From assembly GCA_963762145.1 (NCBI GenBank), contig CAVXJS010000010.1:266996-330995 (forward strand): a DNA stretch of 64,000 nucleotides. Reading direction: 5' to 3'. The notes under the pieces are model-generated. The model was not told the DNA's origin and searched no databases. It saw only the letters and a program-made list of their open reading frames with translations. A program made the translations under genes and the position numbers. The DNA is from an uncultured Candidatus Rokubacteria bacterium. Lineage in GTDB: Bacteria; Methylomirabilota; Methylomirabilia; Rokubacteriales; CSP1-6. Below, in pieces: positions 40,483 to 45,316 of the stretch (within the stretch, counting starts at the first letter, position 1; each line of letters starts with the position of its first letter).

Positions 40483-40966
40483 TCACTCGCCGGCGGGCCG
40501 GCGGGTGACGACGCTCACGCGGCCGTCCTCCTCCAGGAAGGCGTAGCGGATGTCCCGCAGCGAGATGACGCCGTGATGGCGCAGGGCCGCACGCAGATCC
40601 CGGGGGCCGAGCCGCTCCCGCCGCAGGTTGTCGCGGATGATGCGGCCGTGGCGGACGAGCACGGTGGGGGAGTGCTCAACCACGCGGTCCAAGCGCTTGA
40701 AGCGGAAGGTCACGTAGGCCACCGCTGAGTTGAGAGCCAGGATGGTGACCGCGCCGATGATCCCGCCCCCGAGCGAGTTGTCGTTGCCGATCATCGCGTT
40801 CTGCAGCACGTTGCTGATCAGGAGCAGGACGACGAGGTCGAAGGCGGTGAGCTGGCCGAGCTGCCGCTTGCCGCAGAGGCGGAAGGCCAGCAGCAGGAAT
40901 GCGTACACCGCCCCCGCGCGCAGCACCTTCTCCGCGACGCTGATGTCGGGTACCAGGATGTCCATG
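40483..40966 (-). CDS. DUF421/YetF membrane protein
   Basis: GKRQLGQLTAFDLVVLLLISN, LEEDGRVSV. Confidence 0.88.
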
Positions 40967-41015
40967 AGGCTCCGGCCCTCAGCATCGCACCCGTCCCGAC
41001 GGATCGGGGCCGAAA

Positions 41016-41050
41016 TTGACACGCGGGCATCGCGGCCGTAGGCTCGCGGC
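41016..41050 (+). promoter_or_regulatory. sigma70 promoter, probably producing a leaderless transcript
   Basis: TTGACA-N17-TAGGCT-N6-ATG. Confidence 0.65.
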
Positions 41051-41335
41051 ATGTGGCGGCGGACGCTCGTGGTGCTGGGACTGGCGCTGCTGCACCTCCT
41101 CCTCGCCGCGACGGTGACCCTGGAGACCGCCGACGTCGCGTGGGCCCCGAGCTACATCGACGGCGACGACCGCGACGCGACGCGATTCTCCGAGCGGCTG
41201 TGCGCGCTGGCCGGCGCGCCCGCCGGCCTGATCCCGCTCCTGGCCGCGCTCGCGATGGTCGTGGCGCGCCCGCCCGCGGCCGCGCGCCGGGTCGCGCCCG
41301 CCCGCCTCCGCGTCCGCGCTCCACCTCGCGCCTAG
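41051..41335 (+). CDS. Putative leader/arrest peptide: RR-hydrophobic N-terminus, acidic motif, C-terminal RAPP
   Basis: MWRRTLVVLGLALL...WAPSYIDGDDRD...RLRVRAPPRA*. Confidence 0.65.
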   Translation: MWRRTLVVLGLALLHLLLAATVTLETADVAWAPSYIDGDDRDATRFSERLCALAGAPAGLIPLLAALAMVVARPPAAARRVAPARLRVRAPPRA

Positions 41336-41411
41336 TCCTCTCTCCGCGCGGTTCTCGGGCGGGACTCCCGCCCGCGTCGTGATCCAAATTCCACCGTCGA
41401 GGAGGACGCGC

Positions 41412-41606
41412 ATGTTCGGTCTCGGTGCTCAGGAGCTGATCTTGATCCTGCTGATCGCGCTGGTGCTGTTCGGTGGCTCGAAGATTCCGGAGGTCGGCCG
41501 CTCTCTCGGGCAGGCGATCCGCGAGTTCAAGCGGGGTGTGGAGACCGCGGACGCGCCCGCCGGGCCCCCGAACCGCCCCGGGCCGGACGGACCGAAGTCG
41601 ACGTGA
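41412..41606 (+). CDS. tatA: Twin-arginine translocase TatA/E subunit
   Basis: MFGLGAQELILILLIALVLFGGSKIPEVGRSLGQAIREFK; GAGGAGG RBS. Confidence 0.95.
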   Translation: MFGLGAQELILILLIALVLFGGSKIPEVGRSLGQAIREFKRGVETADAPAGPPNRPGPDGPKST

Positions 41607-41676
41607 CGCGGGCGGGCGCGGGGGACGCGAATGCTTGACACCCGGGCGCCCCCACCTCTAGCGTAGGTGCTTCAGG

Positions 41677-43495
41677 ATGAAGATCAGCGCCGTAAAGAAG
41701 CTGTTCGTGGGATCACCGCTCGCTACGGCGCAGGCCCGGCACGAGCGGCTCTCGAAGACGTCCGCGCTCGCGGTCTTCTCGTCCGACGCGCTCTCCTCGG
41801 TGGCGTACGCCACCGAGGAGATCCTGCTGGTCCTGGTGGTCGCGGGCACCGCCGCGCTCGTCTACTCGATTCCGATCGGGCTCGCGATCGCGGTGCTGAT
41901 CGCGGTCGTGGTCAGCTCGTACCGGCAGACCATCCTGGCCTATCCCCAGGGCGGCGGCTCCTACATCGTCACCAAGGACAACCTGGGCCAGGTGCCCGGG
42001 CTCGTCTCCGGGGCCGCGCTGCTCATCGACTACGTGCTGACGGTCGCGGTGAGCGTGGCCGCGGGCGTGGCCGCCATCACCTCCGCGTTCCCCGTCCTCT
42101 ACGACTATCGCGTCCCGCTCGGCGTGCTCTTCGTCGCCGGGATCGCGACCATGAACCTTCGGGGCCTGCGGGAGTCGAGCAATCTCTTCGCGGTCCCGAC
42201 CTACCTCTTCGTGATGAGCTTCGGGGGCATGCTCGCCTACGGCTTCATCCGGTGGGTGGCGGGATGGGAGACTCCGCCGCCTCCGACCGCCGATCTCGCG
42301 GTGACCCAGGACCTGTCCCTCTTCCTGGTGCTGCGCGCGTTCTCCTCCGGCTGCGCCGCGCTCACCGGCGTCGAGGCGGTGTCCGACGGCGTGCCCGCCT
42401 TCCGGCCGCCGGAGGCGCGCAACGCCCGCGTCGTGCTCGCCTGGCTCGGGTTCGATCCTGATCACGCTGTTCGTCGGCATCACGTTCCTGGCCCGTCACC
42501 TGCACATCGTGCCGCGGGAGGACGAGACGGTGGTCTCGCAGCTCGCCCGCCTCATCTTCGGAGACGGGCTCCTGTACTACGAGATCCAGGTCGTCACCAT
42601 GTTCATCCTGGTCTTCGCGGCCAACACCGCCTTCGCCGACTTCCCGCGGCTGGCCTACTTCCTGGCCCGCGACGGCTTCATCCCCCGCCAGTTCGCCACC
42701 CGCGGCGATCGGCTCGTCTTCTCCAACGGGATCCTGATCCTGGGCGGCCTCGCCGCCCTCCTCATCGTGCTGTTCGGCGGGGCCACCCACGCCCTCATCC
42801 CGCTCTACGCGGTGGGGGTGTTCCTCTCCTTCACGCTCTCGCAGGCGAGCATGGTGCGGCGCTGGCTCACTCGCCGCGAGCCGGGCTGGCGGTGGCGGTG
42901 GGGCCTCAACGCGGTGGGAGCGGCCACCACCGGCCTCGTGATGCTGGTCATCGCGATCACCAAGTTCAGTCACGGGGCCTGGATGGTCGTGCTGCTGATC
43001 CCGCTGCTGGTGGCGGTCTTCATGATGATCCATCGCCACTACGCCGACGTGGCGGGCCAGCTCTCGCTCGACGAGTACGGAGGGCCGCCCCCGATCGACC
43101 ACACCGTGCTCGTGCTGGTGGGCGACCTGCACCGCGGGGTGGCCTCCGCGCTGCGCTACGCGCAGAGCCTCTCGGCGTCGGTGAAGGCGGTCTACGTCGA
43201 GATGGATCCGGAGCGGACGCAGAAGCTCGAGGAGAAGTGGGGCAAGTGGGGGCTCGGGGTTCCCCTCGTGGTGCTGACGTCGCCCTACCGGTCGCTGCTC
43301 ACCCCGTTCCTCGACTACGTCAACCACCTCCTCGCGCTGAGCGAGCGCCAGGTGGTCACGATCGTGATCCCGGAGTTCGTTCCGGCCCGGTGGTGGCAGC
43401 ATCTCCTCCACAACCAGACCGCCCTGCTCATCAAGGGCGCGCTGCTGTTCCGCAAGGGCGTCGTGGTCGTGGACGTCCCCTTCCACCTCCGATGA
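41677..43495 (+). CDS. KimA/YdaO-like APC-family K+ transporter, copy 1 (one frameshift near 42455)
   Basis: SSDALSSVAYATEE, YPQGGGSY, ANTAFADFPRL, GDRLVFSNG, LLHNQTA. Confidence 0.88.
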
Positions 43496-45316
43496 ATCTC
43501 TCCAAGCTCAAACGATGGTTCGTGGGCACGCCGATCGCGACGGCCCAGGCGCACCACGAGCGGCTCGGCCCGGTCACCGGTCTCGCCGTCTTCGCTTCCG
43601 ACAACCTCTCCTCGGTGGCGTACGCCACCGAGGAGATTCTGCGTGTGCTCCTCCTCGCCGGGGTGGGGGCGCTCGCGTTCTCGGTGCCCATCGGCTTCTG
43701 CATCGCCGCGGTGATCGGGATCGTGATCATGTCGTACCGTCAGAACATCGCGGCGTACCCGCAGGGCGCCAGCGACTACATCGTGGCCAAGGACAACCTG
43801 GGGGTCTTCCCGGGCCTGACCGCGGGCGCCGCCCTCCTCATCGACTACACCCTGACGGTGGCGGTGAGCGTCTCCGCCGGAGTCGCCGCGCTCACCTCCG
43901 CCTTCCCGGTGCTCTACCCGTACCGGGTCGTGCTCGGCGTGGGCCTGGTGGTGCTCGTCGCGGTGGCGAACCTGCGGGGCATTCGCGAGTCCGGCCGGGT
44001 GTTCGCGGTGTGGAGCTACCTGTTCATCGCCGGGTATGCGCTGCTGATGGTCTACGGCTTCGCGGCGCTCGCGATCTGGGGCCGCCCCCCGGTGGAGTCG
44101 GTCGCGCCCCCTCCACCGCCTCTCGCCGAGCTCGGCGTGTTCCTGCTCCTGCGTGCCTTCGCCTCCGGCGCGGTCGCCCTCACCGGGATCGAGGCGGTCT
44201 CGGACGGCACCCCGGCGTTCCGGCCGCCGGAGGTGCGCAACGCGCAGACCGTGCTCGCGGTCCTCGGCGTGATCATGATCACGCTGTTCCTCGGCATCAC
44301 GGTGCTGGCGGCCAGCTACGAGATCGTGCCGCACGACCAGGAGACCGTGGTCTCCCAGCTCGCCCGCGAGGTCTTCGGGGGCGGCCTGCTCTACTACTTC
44401 ATCCAGGGCGTCTCGATGGTCATCCTGGCCCTCGCGGCCAACACCGCGTTCGCCGACTTCCCCCGGCTGGCGTCGTTCATGGCGCGCGACGGGTTCCTGC
44501 CCCGGCAGTTCGCGAGCCGGGGCGACCGGCTGGTGTTCTCGAACGGGGTCATCATCCTGGCGGTGGCCGCGTCGGCGCTGATCGCGCTCTTCGACGGGAG
44601 CACGCACTCCCTGATCCCGCTCTACGCCCTCGGGGTCTTCACGTCGTTCACGCTGTCGCAGGTGGGCATGGTGCGCCGCTGGCTCACGCAGCCGCCCCGC
44701 GGGATGGCGGCCGAAGGCGCTGATCAGCGGGCTGGGCGCGGCGACCACCGGGCTCGTGATGGTGGTCACCGCGCTCGCCAAGTTCTCGGACGGGGCGTGG
44801 ATCGTGGTGGTGATCGCGGGCGCCCTCATCGCGGGCTTCGTGAGCATCAACCGCCACTATCGCGAGGTGGCGGGCCAGCTCTCGCTCGACGGCTACGCGG
44901 GGCCGCCGCCCATGCAGCACACCGTGCTCGTCCTGGTCGGCGATCTCCACAAGGGGGTCGTGCAGGCGCTGCAGTACGCGCGCACCCTCTCGCCGTCGGC
45001 CAAGGCGGTCTACGTGGAGATGGATCCGGAGAAGACGCGCCGGCTCGAGGAGAAGTGGGGCAAGTGGGGCTTCGGCGTGCCGCTGGTGGTGCTGACGTCA
45101 CCCTACCGGCTGCTGCTGTCGCCGCTGCTCGACTACGTGGACCATCTCCTCGCGCTCGGCGAGAACCACATGGTGACCATCGTCATCCCCGAGTTCATTC
45201 CGGCCAAGTGGTGGCAGCAGCTCCTCCACAACCAGACCGCGCTGGTGATCAAGGGCGCGCTGCTCTTCCGGCGAAATGTGGTGGTCACGGACGTCCCGTA
45301 CCACCTGCGGAGGTAG
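43492..45316 (+). CDS. KimA/YdaO-like APC-family K+ transporter, copy 2 (frameshift near 44700)
   Basis: ASDNLSSVAYATEE and the same motifs as copy 1; ATGA overlap with copy 1. Confidence 0.88.

Follow-up and report, generated by a model that had tools for sequence, protein, structure and literature searches.

ApdA, ApdP and the RAPP/RGPP upstream ORFs (uORFs) of Streptomyces lividans are small proteins with an N-terminal localisation signal and a conserved RAPP core a few residues before the stop codon, encoded directly 5' of the regulated gene and on the same strand; their targets are secDF, yidC, metal, redox or ECF genes (PMC7897499, PMC10951233, PMC12992588). RAPP is described in PMC12992588 as refractory to EF-P and avoided in proteomes, and 7/7 S. 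lividans proteins with a C-terminal RAPP or RGPP stalled in vitro. In CutF of Rhodobacter capsulatus (PMC9973294) and the DUF2946 protein CruR of Bordetella pertussis (PMC9426467), a co-translationally exported nascent chain carries a periplasm-exposed Cys/His copper motif that modulates a C-terminal stall. CutF acts on a stem-loop in the mRNA by which the ribosome-binding site (RBS) of the next gene is masked, and RAPP arrest in CruR prevents Rho-dependent termination. In SecM, whose RAGP is RAPP-like, and in MifM and VemP, the pull of export frees the arrest; a ribosome that is still arrested exposes the Shine-Dalgarno sequence (SD) ahead of a gene whose product serves protein localisation. 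Our literature search found no paper linking an arrest peptide or a monitoring substrate to tatA or the Tat pathway, and the searched part of the PMC12992588 supplement held no TatA, twin-arginine or leader-family motifs. The tatABC genes of E. coli are placed under a sigma-70 promoter in a review (PMC10502375).

The locus described here lies in a 64,000-nt window (the whole stretch of DNA analysed) from an uncultured Candidatus Rokubacteria bacterium. We put at roughly 0.6 the probability that its leader ORF encodes a RAPP-type arrest peptide, like ApdA, CruR and CutF, that gates translation of an accessory tatA paralog. The locus contains the following features:

41016..41044, + strand: promoter-like element TTGACA-N17-TAGGCT, its -10 ending 6 nt 5' of the ATG
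41051..41335, + strand: leader ORF, 94 aa, GC3 0.947, 46 homologues (alignments A1 and A2)
41141..41176, + strand: acidic motif WAPSYIDGDDRD, W31-D42 (residues 31-42), a family hallmark
41225..41266, + strand: second hydrophobic segment GLIPLLAALAMVVA, residues 59-72 (alignments A2 and A5; AF2 helix 60-72)
41315..41326, + strand: RAPP, codons CGC GCT CCA CCT, residues 89-92 of 94; P91 and P92 invariant, R89 and A90 nearly so (A2)
41328..41346, + strand: anti-SD region, comprising the last codons, the stop TAG (41333-41335) and GTCCTCTCTCC; paired with the tatA SD in the minimum free energy fold
41356..41374, + strand: GC-rich hairpin CGGGCGGG-ACT-CCCGCCCG between anti-SD and SD, with no U-tract
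41399..41411, + strand: tatA SD region GAGGAGGACGCGC; AGGAGG invariant in 29/29 sequences
41412..41606, + strand: tatA paralog, 64 aa; Pfam TatA_B_E PF02416, 1.2e-17, 63.3 bits against a cut-off of 21

The leader resembles ApdA, ApdP and the S. lividans uORFs in its small size, its RAPP close to the stop, its place before a co-oriented gene and a putative N-terminal localisation signal, and has no sequence relationship to them outside RAPP. Its target is tatA, and it differs in having an acidic motif whose distance from RAPP is fixed, and probably a leaderless mRNA; the stall here is a prediction. With CutF and CruR it would have in common the co-translationally exported chain and a periplasm-exposed motif acting on the predicted stall, and with CutF the putative masking of an SD. 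However, its motif is acidic instead of Cys/His, its single cysteine (C51) is not kept in relatives, it has no CxxC/CxxxC motif and no Pfam match to DUF2946 (PF11162), and CruR acts via Rho, unlike the SD masking considered here. The proposed logic is that of SecM, MifM and VemP, with no homology to them; the leader looks like a client of Sec, SRP or YidC whereas the regulated factor belongs to the Tat pathway, and it would therefore not monitor the pathway that it regulates.

Judged from base composition and alignment, the leader ORF (94 aa here, 97 aa in most relatives) is genuinely coding and conserved. Its GC content by codon position is 0.82/0.59/0.947; GC3 is 0.94-0.97 in neighbouring genes, compared with 0.61-0.79 in three overlapping alternative frames, and its differences from relatives are in-frame indels. 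Neither the ORF nor its relatives matched any Pfam or NCBIfam family, seven relatives having been compared with Pfam. From the N-terminus, the ORF encodes a hydrophobic anchor, the acidic motif, the second hydrophobic segment, which is specific to the tatA-linked ('type II') subfamily, a basic tail and RAPP-Arg-Ala-stop. This topology was read from hydrophobicity and a low-confidence AF2 model (mean pLDDT 68) made up of helices only (residues 2-31, 43-54 and 60-72), with no fold to search; helix 2-31 was modelled with high confidence, and the hydrophobic stretch falls at residues 5-24.

The promoter-like elements can be read directly from the DNA (TTGACA at 41016-41021, a 17-nt spacer, TAGGCT at 41039-41044, then 6 nt to the ATG at 41051), as the first-pass annotation had done. 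The pattern TTGACA-N17-TANNNT was observed 3 times in the window, with 0.01 expected, and 11/11 same-genus loci, as well as L094 from a second genus, agree with the window in -35, -10, spacer length and the 6-nt distance to the ATG. A stricter consensus scan returned 0 sites because TAGGCT matches TATAAT at just 3/6 positions. The conserved position of the promoter 6 nt before the ATG suggests a leaderless transcript, and the mRNA of the leader ORF is on this comparative evidence probably leaderless, as had been claimed. In metatranscriptomes, four RNA runs held short contigs from relatives 88-95% identical to the locus. One of these, of 172 nt, spans 40954-41097, and others lie over tatA or the tatA-kimA junction; being contigs, they give no transcript start, strand or level.

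By alignment, RAPP is the most conserved feature of the leader. Among 37 tatA-linked loci examined (the scan used alignment A1, A2 being too diverse for this), the 34 with a complete ORF end were counted, and RAPP was kept in 34/34 with 2-7 residues after it. The codons vary synonymously among loci (CGC/CGG/CGA, GCT/GCG/GCC, CCA/CCT/CCC/CCG). The leader belongs to a large, unnamed family of 954 cluster representatives, whose members combine RAPP with a signal peptide or anchor and with an acidic motif of the YDDxDxDD type that is invariant; these members precede varied, often envelope-related genes. In an alignment of 52 family sequences (A3), the R, P and P of RAPP are invariant and the A nearly so, and the preceding ~45 residues are barely conserved. 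R[AG]PP occurs within the last 20 residues of 127/147 further family representatives, and exactly two residues follow RAPP in 59/94 members scored, as in the window ORF, which ends Arg-Ala-TAG. The earlier expectation that RAPP and its position before tatA would be conserved thus held: RAPP, its spacing to the stop and the position of tatA are kept across two genera.

The acidic motif was likewise found to be conserved, a point that the first-pass annotation had raised for the upstream ORFs. D28, D37 and D42 are invariant in both A2 and A3, and D40 is invariant in A2 and nearly so in A3. The motif lies 52-58 residues from RAPP in 94/94 members scored, with 54 residues in 56/94 and 52 in the window ORF. 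We propose that it acts as a sensor or as a pulling handle. In a review (PMC6028853, citing Ismail 2015), the membrane potential is described as pulling acidic clusters that cross SecYEG hard enough to free SecM arrest.

The genome has three genes of the TatA/B/E family, among them this tatA paralog, which is unlinked to tatC; a housekeeping-like tatA paralog on contig 9 has an ordinary SD leader and no RAPP ORF upstream. Within the genus, tatA follows the leader ORF at 34/34 loci, and it does so at 2 loci from the second genus; in every complete locus it is co-oriented and starts 46-114 nt 3' of the leader ORF. Furthermore, in all five variant loci examined the two were lost or broken together. 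Both are missing from G007 and G001, where kimA and its promoter remain; in G020 all that is left, ahead of the kimA promoter, is a piece of the 3' end of tatA; in G014 the leader ORF is deleted and tatA frameshifted; and in G139 RAPP has become RVPP and tatA is truncated.

The two genes 3' of tatA are conserved neighbours and encode KimA-type K+ transporters (PDB 6S3K, E 3.6e-109). They had earlier been tied into the regulated unit. This was not supported: kimA has its own conserved promoter, TTGACAC...TAGCGT, which is kept where the leader ORF and tatA are deleted. An 11-codon frame in the tatA-kimA gap, MLDTRAPPPLA (41632-41667), was considered as a second RAPP leader and rejected; it overlaps the kimA promoter, and relatives do not keep it intact, L005 and L008 having no ATG and L005 and L011 no RAPP.

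At the RNA level, the first-pass annotation had proposed that the end of the leader ORF is complementary to the tatA RBS. GTCCTC (41335-41340) and CGCGTCC (41309-41315) are both complementary to the tatA SD region, across a spacer of 76 nt (41336-41411). Most loci carry a post-stop CCUCCUC (TAG-CCUCCUC). Six (L003, L038, L048, L051, L052 and L053) have no post-stop anti-SD, and their Pro-Pro-Leu codons read CCU CCU CUC; in the comparison of loci, then, the anti-SD element at the ORF end is retained even when shifted in position. The complementarity is real and the anti-SD is kept in relatives. The fold of the window region was not more stable than shuffles (z = -0.08). With the SD, the ORF end forms a predicted duplex of -20.1 kcal/mol on average, where control windows from within the ORF reach a mean of -16.5 (sd 3.5); in 11/28 sequences the ORF-end duplex falls outside the best 10% of controls, control duplexes also being strong in a 70% GC genome.

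The GC hairpin covaries in the alignment of 29 sequences: the share of paired cells is 93% (39-58% in slid controls), and 4/8 pairs have changed on both sides; it is absent in L056 and L057. RNAalifold on the same number of sequences recovered the hairpin, a short local helix within the ORF end and a brief stretch in which the codons immediately before RAPP pair with the SD, and no clear SD helix. Column covariation is uninformative for that helix because its registers are degenerate, (CCU)n against (AGG)n, and an SD:anti-SD helix cannot covary because the SD is invariant.

The effect of a parked ribosome was predicted with a stall geometry at RAPP taken from PMC10951233. Counted from the first nt of the P-site codon, the post-stop anti-SD begins at +16 in most loci, at the edge of the stalled ribosome. 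The mean unpaired probability of the tatA SD is predicted to rise modestly, from 0.14 in the free RNA to 0.24-0.33 with a ribosome at RAPP; if the ribosome covers only to +12/+13, the predicted SD pairing stays. A terminating ribosome would open the SD about equally (0.31 unpaired), and plain translational coupling therefore fits the RNA layout too. The leader could then be a small membrane protein of the usual kind, which may partner TatA, with tatA translationally coupled to it and RAPP kept for a reason at the protein level, and the co-occurrence and joint loss of ORF and tatA would also fit such a partnership. We consider this distinctly unlikely. A C-terminal RAPP is the one feature common to relatives that stand before many unrelated genes; the motif is strongly avoided in ordinary proteins and, in the seven S. 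lividans cases reported in PMC12992588, stalled throughout; and the stretch between acidic motif and RAPP, poor in sequence conservation and fixed in length, is typical of a ruler and not of a folded partner.

A transcriptional output was also considered. The same arrest peptide could act as CruR or TnaC does, the parked ribosome blocking Rho on a C-rich spacer so that release of the stall leads to termination before tatA. The CruR precedent (PMC9426467) fits this, as do the C-rich, G-poor run CCUCCUCUCCAC with which the spacer opens, a second such run, AAUCUCCACC, and the result of a terminator scan, which found no intrinsic terminator (0 sites). However, a spacer of 46-114 nt, much of which is in most loci a stable GC hairpin, would be a poor Rho substrate. 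In addition, the pyrimidine runs are exact SD complements, and the shift of the anti-SD into codons in one subgroup is expected for SD masking and not for a rut site. We regard Rho-dependent control as quite improbable here.

The N-terminus had initially been read as a Tat signal on account of its RR pair. The pair is present in the window ORF, yet in only 17/30 distinct tatA-linked ORFs, of which 14/30 fit RR-x-phi-phi; the other 13/30 have a single R or R-P-R, and L005-L010 all have a single R. Members of the wider family have ordinary AxA-type signal peptide sites. Because the RR is not conserved, near-invariance having been looked for, the Tat-signal reading was dropped. A further idea is that of a 'TatM', a leader that is itself a Tat substrate and monitors Tat activity as SecM does Sec. 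RR followed by hydrophobic residues in the window ORF and 16 others, together with the identity of the regulated gene as tatA, would suit this idea. It is nevertheless highly improbable, given the RR-less ORFs and the same-motif family members with AxA-type cleavage sites before unrelated genes. Moreover, Tat exports folded proteins, after translation, and such post-translational export fits poorly with the freeing of a co-translational stall in which the last ~30 residues are in the tunnel.

Under the preferred reading, that of an exported arrest leader acting by SD masking, events could run as follows. The mRNA would begin at or beside the AUG of the ORF and hence be leaderless. The N-terminal hydrophobic segment would bring the nascent chain co-translationally to Sec/SRP (or YidC), and the acidic motif would be threaded to the outer membrane face. 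With the ribosome at RAPP, two codons ahead of the stop, peptide-bond formation would halt, as is known for RAPP elsewhere; at this point the acidic cluster would lie ~52-58 residues (52 here) from the Arg of RAPP, a gap established by comparison. Where export proceeds, aided by the membrane potential tugging at the acidic cluster, chain tension would free the stall, the ribosome would terminate and depart, the pyrimidine-rich ORF end would pair with the tatA SD across the hairpin, and tatA expression would be low. Where export or membrane energisation is poor, the ribosome would stay on the last codons, the anti-SD would be partly or wholly unavailable, and tatA would be translated. We infer both the sign of this switch and the nature of the sensed signal (export, membrane potential or a cation); most likely, tatA translation is switched by how well the leader peptide itself is exported.

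The signal could alternatively be a periplasmic ligand, most plausibly a divalent cation (Mg2+, Ca2+) or cationic peptides, that tunes the arrest at the acidic motif in place of export capacity or membrane potential. Such a role suits the D-rich motif (DxDxD / DGDDGD), which is invariant and lies at the exported end. A Pfam scan of 26 proteins downstream of other family members returned PMT_2 (ArnT-like fold) twice, RND pumps twice, GT2, NAD epimerase, DegT aminotransferase and AsnB-type synthase (four times), and thus includes lipid/LPS-modification-like enzymes as well as pumps. Enterobacteria run such a lipid/LPS-modification set via the cation-sensing PhoPQ/PmrAB. The K+ transporters are conserved neighbours, and exported nascent sensors have precedents in CutF (PMC9973294) and CruR. 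Against this, no metal-binding fold is predicted and the motif region has a pLDDT of 53-58 in the AF2 model, Pfam gave nothing for 9/26 of the downstream proteins and several more have no relation to cations, and kimA is driven by its own promoter. A ligand as the main signal therefore seems doubtful to us.

More tentatively, the acidic cluster, at its ~52-58 residues from the Arg of RAPP, may gauge how well the membrane is energised, or else sense divalent cations in the periplasm. In the former case, the duration of the stall would be set by the electric force on aspartates crossing SecYEG. The family would then consist of nascent-chain 'voltmeters', up to a dozen per Rokubacteria genome, that tune an envelope regulon (extra TatA, ArnT-like and other sugar-modifying enzymes, RND pumps, and an ECF/CpxP-like stress cluster). 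We hold this extension to be possible and no stronger.

If the arrest-leader reading is true, the locus would be the first case of arrest-peptide control of the PMF-driven Tat pathway, and it would carry nascent-chain sensing over to Tat from Sec/YidC and metal homeostasis. The analysis further delimits the exported RAPP leaders as a large family that has no name so far, in the Rokubacteria, a soil lineage that is abundant but uncultured. The sensor motif proposed for these leaders is of a new type: an acidic cluster held at a constant, ruler-like distance. The family members differ in the position of the anti-SD, in the presence of the hairpin and in whether the signal is cleavable or an anchor, and the family would thus offer many natural variants for studying in what way the exported segment determines how long a RAPP stall lasts.

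The sequence upstream of tatA, in a window of 70% GC base composition, carries the features listed below. All elements described in the first-pass annotation were found, at the positions it had assigned to them.

40483-40965, minus strand: DUF421/YetF gene, the divergent flank of the leader ORF-tatA segment
41016-41044, plus strand: promoter-like element, TTGACA (41016-41021), 17-nt spacer, TAGGCT (41039-41044)
41051, plus strand: ATG start of the leader ORF, 6 nt past TAGGCT
41051-41335, plus strand: leader ORF of 94 codons ending R-A-P-P-R-A-TAG (RAPP 41315-41326, stop 41333-41335)
41336-41411: leader ORF-tatA spacer of 76 nt with a hairpin inside (41356-41374)
41399, plus strand: beginning of the tatA Shine-Dalgarno sequence (SD), GAGGAGGAC
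41412-41606, plus strand: tatA

GC content at codon positions 1/2/3 of the leader ORF is 0.82/0.59/0.947; the third-position value agrees with those of the neighbour genes (0.94-0.97), the three overlapping open frames having 0.61-0.79. A protein search recovered 46 homologues, mostly of 97 aa, from which the window copy is set apart by in-frame deletions. Six-frame searching across 61 related genomes (E < 1e-9) matched the leader ORF in 10 of the 20 other genomes from its genus and in no genome beyond that genus; G029, among the genomes counted, gave no significant match. We compared 37 loci (11 from genomes of the genus, 2 from genome contigs and 24 from metagenome contigs), of which three (L047, L058, L059) are cut or frameshifted. 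Conservation of RAPP and of its placement in homologues, which the first-pass annotation had set as a check on its proposed tatA-controlling leader peptide, is seen in all 34 loci complete at the ORF end: RAPP ends the ORF, followed by 2 residues (7 in L010), and a tatA frame begins 52-114 nt downstream (with AGG for ATG in L060). Some loci are duplicates, leaving 29 distinct sequences for the ORF-end-to-tatA region. Synonymous variation is seen in the codons for RAPP (CGC/CGG/CGA, GCT/GCG/GCC, CCA/CCT/CCC/CCG), so the peptide is what selection acts on. Judged by these comparisons of sequence, the leader ORF and its features are real and well conserved. The RR signal described earlier is not general, being present in just 17 of 30 distinct ORFs, and a conserved Tat substrate was rejected on this count.

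The leader ORF belongs to a broader family. When 1.84 billion cluster representatives were searched with its profile, 954 matched at E <= 1e-3, nearly all of ~95-130 aa and aligned end to end. Of the 150 matches listed, 147 were new, and 127 of these have R[AG]PP within the last 20 residues. In most members (type I) an AxA-type site precedes SPPDPxWIxGxYDDxDxDDVV; type II, the tatA-linked form, carries SYFD(G/D)DDxD together with a second hydrophobic segment. The invariant positions of a 52-sequence family alignment are three Asp within the acidic motif and R, P and P of RAPP. Counted from the cluster's first Asp, the RAPP Arg was 52-58 residues away in 94/94 members, and 54 in 56 of them, scored where the pattern found both motifs (it missed 53 of 147). 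No Pfam or NCBIfam model matched the leader ORF or the relatives tested. The family was found in 61 of 151 genomes sampled from the phylum, with up to 12 copies per genome, and its bearers belong to two families, both within one order (f1 with 51/93 and f4 with 9/11, against 0/46 in the remaining nine families).

The window genome has a second member (locus L062, G000:C8:32519-35791, ORF 1495-1779; …LAHA/SPPDPAWIPGIYDDDDGD…SRAPPAR, then stop), which follows genes for an ECF sigma factor, an anti-sigma factor of zf-HC2-like type and a periplasmic protein resembling CpxP/Spy (labels by translation reading only) and precedes one for a secreted protein of 149 aa that lacks a Pfam match. The 26 downstream proteins scanned for other members included four AsnB-type synthases, two PMT_2 glycosyltransferases, two RND transporters, and one each of GT2, NAD epimerase, DegT aminotransferase, response regulator and HTH protein; two beta-propeller repeats and a sub-threshold FlgA-N were weak matches, and nine proteins had no match. 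By eye and unscored, a CUCC or CCUC run follows the stop in many family loci, and L080 repeats the order anti-SD, GC hairpin, SD. Members also occur in tandem or divergently (L014, G007:C53, 1456-1770 and 1845-2156; L075 and L076, G014:C74 and G019:C57), and contig 57 of G019 has four copies in ~10 kb beside asparagine-synthase and glycosyltransferase genes, which suggests local amplification of a regulatory cassette.

Published work (PMC12992588) describes RAPP as resisting EF-P and as a motif that proteomes avoid, except close to the C-terminus of small proteins that are secreted or membrane-bound and encoded ahead of a variety of genes; seven of seven such S. lividans proteins, plus CruR, stalled in vitro. 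Other studies show that an exported motif can tune a RAPP-type stall, as in CutF (PMC9973294) and CruR (PMC9426467), and that membrane potential pulls acidic clusters crossing SecYEG, enough to release SecM arrest (PMC6028853). By analogy with these systems, the leader ORF most likely encodes a RAPP arrest leader. Membership in CruR/DUF2946 was rejected, since the leader ORF differs in having neither a DUF2946 Pfam match nor a CxxC motif. We infer that the export status of the peptide would set the dwell time of the ribosome on its last codons, and that this dwell time would set ribosome access to the tatA SD. Arrest, topology, switch sign and signal are all proposed on this basis, and regulation of tatA by the leader ORF is plausible.

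In most loci the stop is directly followed by (C/U)CUCCUC(U/C)CC, which is complementary to GAGGAGG, the invariant SD. This post-stop anti-SD is missing from six loci (L003, L038, L048, L051, L052, L053), in which the Pro-Pro-Leu codons are CCU CCU CUC, placing the anti-SD within the arrest codons. In a second genus, L094 has a post-stop anti-SD (CUCCCUCUC vs SD GAGAGGAG) and L095 has it within P-L-S codons. The best calculated SD duplex with the ORF end averaged -20.1 kcal/mol vs -16.5 (sd 3.5) in control windows from the same ORFs, and in 17 of 28 sequences it ranked with the top 10% of controls; the SD partner lies at -5 to +8/+13 or +9 to +23 relative to the P-site codon. A GC hairpin, absent from L056 and L057, had 93% of cells paired vs 39-58% in slid controls, with both-side changes at 4 of 8 pairs. 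The fold of the window's own copy of this region was not more stable than shuffles, and a scan for terminator-like sites found none. Without a ribosome, the SD had a mean unpaired probability of 0.14. The earlier proposal that a stalled ribosome frees the tatA RBS fits the anti-SD layout; the predicted opening with a ribosome at RAPP (0.25/0.24/0.33 for coverage to +12/+15/+18) compares with 0.31 for a terminating ribosome, and sharp opening (0.00 to 0.22-0.41) was confined to the subgroup whose anti-SD lies within codons. The folding calculations lend moderate support to SD masking, and, with the anti-SD arrangement, make the RNA layout compatible with masking by the leader ORF end. The layout alone does not separate opening by a stalled ribosome from opening by any finishing ribosome.

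The architecture TTGACA-N17-TAGGCT-N6-ATG is identical in 11/11 genus loci, and L094 has TTGACA-N17-TAACCT-N6-ATG. TTGACA-N17-TANNNT occurs three times in the window vs 0.01 expected, the two remaining sites preceding leadered genes. A stricter consensus scan called no promoter because TAGGCT agrees with TATAAT at just 3/6 positions. The leader ORF mRNA is likely leaderless. Upstream of the -35, 40966-41015 (CAGCATCGCACCCG...GACGGATCG) is kept in all genus loci, ORF-less ones included, and may serve the DUF421/YetF gene as 5' UTR or operator, or else be a site where a regulator acts on the ORF promoter.

The window genome has three TatA/B/E genes, plus tatC elsewhere; the copy on contig 9, a paralog, is preceded by an ordinary SD leader and lacks a RAPP ORF upstream. 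The leader ORF-tatA pair is intact in 11 of 21 genus genomes, the window's own included. Both genes are absent from G007 and G001, where a remnant of the ORF promoter abuts the kimA promoter; only a tatA 3' remnant is left in G020; G014 has lost the leader ORF and has a frameshifting deletion in tatA; and in G139, of the second genus, RVPP replaces RAPP and tatA is truncated. Among these few, related and often incomplete genomes, neither an intact tatA without the leader ORF nor the ORF without tatA was seen, and from gene content the two appear as a unit in the genus. Deletions removing the ORF and/or tatA (L127, G014:C169; L137, G007:C18; L128, G001:C8; L141, G020:C46) end in or beside two similar promoter elements, and GAAT..TTGACAC repeat recombination could be their cause.

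Downstream of tatA are tandem KimA-type K+ transporter genes (41677-45316; PDB 6S3K match, E 3.6e-109 for the second), each shifting reading frame once in the assembly (near 42453-42509 and 44691-44756), through either true frameshifts or assembly indel errors. The first-pass annotation had linked the leader to K+ transport; a single operon was rejected, as the kimA genes have their own conserved promoter, which persists even where leader ORF and tatA are deleted. The tatA-kimA spacer (41607-41676) contains this second promoter-like element (GAATGCTTGACACCCGGGCG...TAGCGT), also conserved, and a hairpin that follows the tatA stop. The element's extended -35 (GAAT..TTGACAC.CGGGC) is similar to that before the leader ORF, which hints at a common regulator or sigma factor. 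An 11-codon frame overlapping the element, MLDTRAPPPLA, was rejected as a conserved peptide (ATG gone in L005 and L008, RAPP in L005 and L011).

No paper linking an arrest peptide to tatA was among those listed by full-text literature searches combining arrest peptide, translation arrest or monitoring substrate with tatA/Tat, and 'Tat' does not occur in the main text of the three Chiba-lab survey papers. In the portion of the 2025 survey supplement that the search covered, neither TatA nor twin-arginine appears in any row and the family's motifs are absent; a row could lie in the remainder. Among RAPP arrest leaders, a class already described, this is a new family with a new putative target, Tat, and its fixed ruler between acidic motif and RAPP is the most original aspect.
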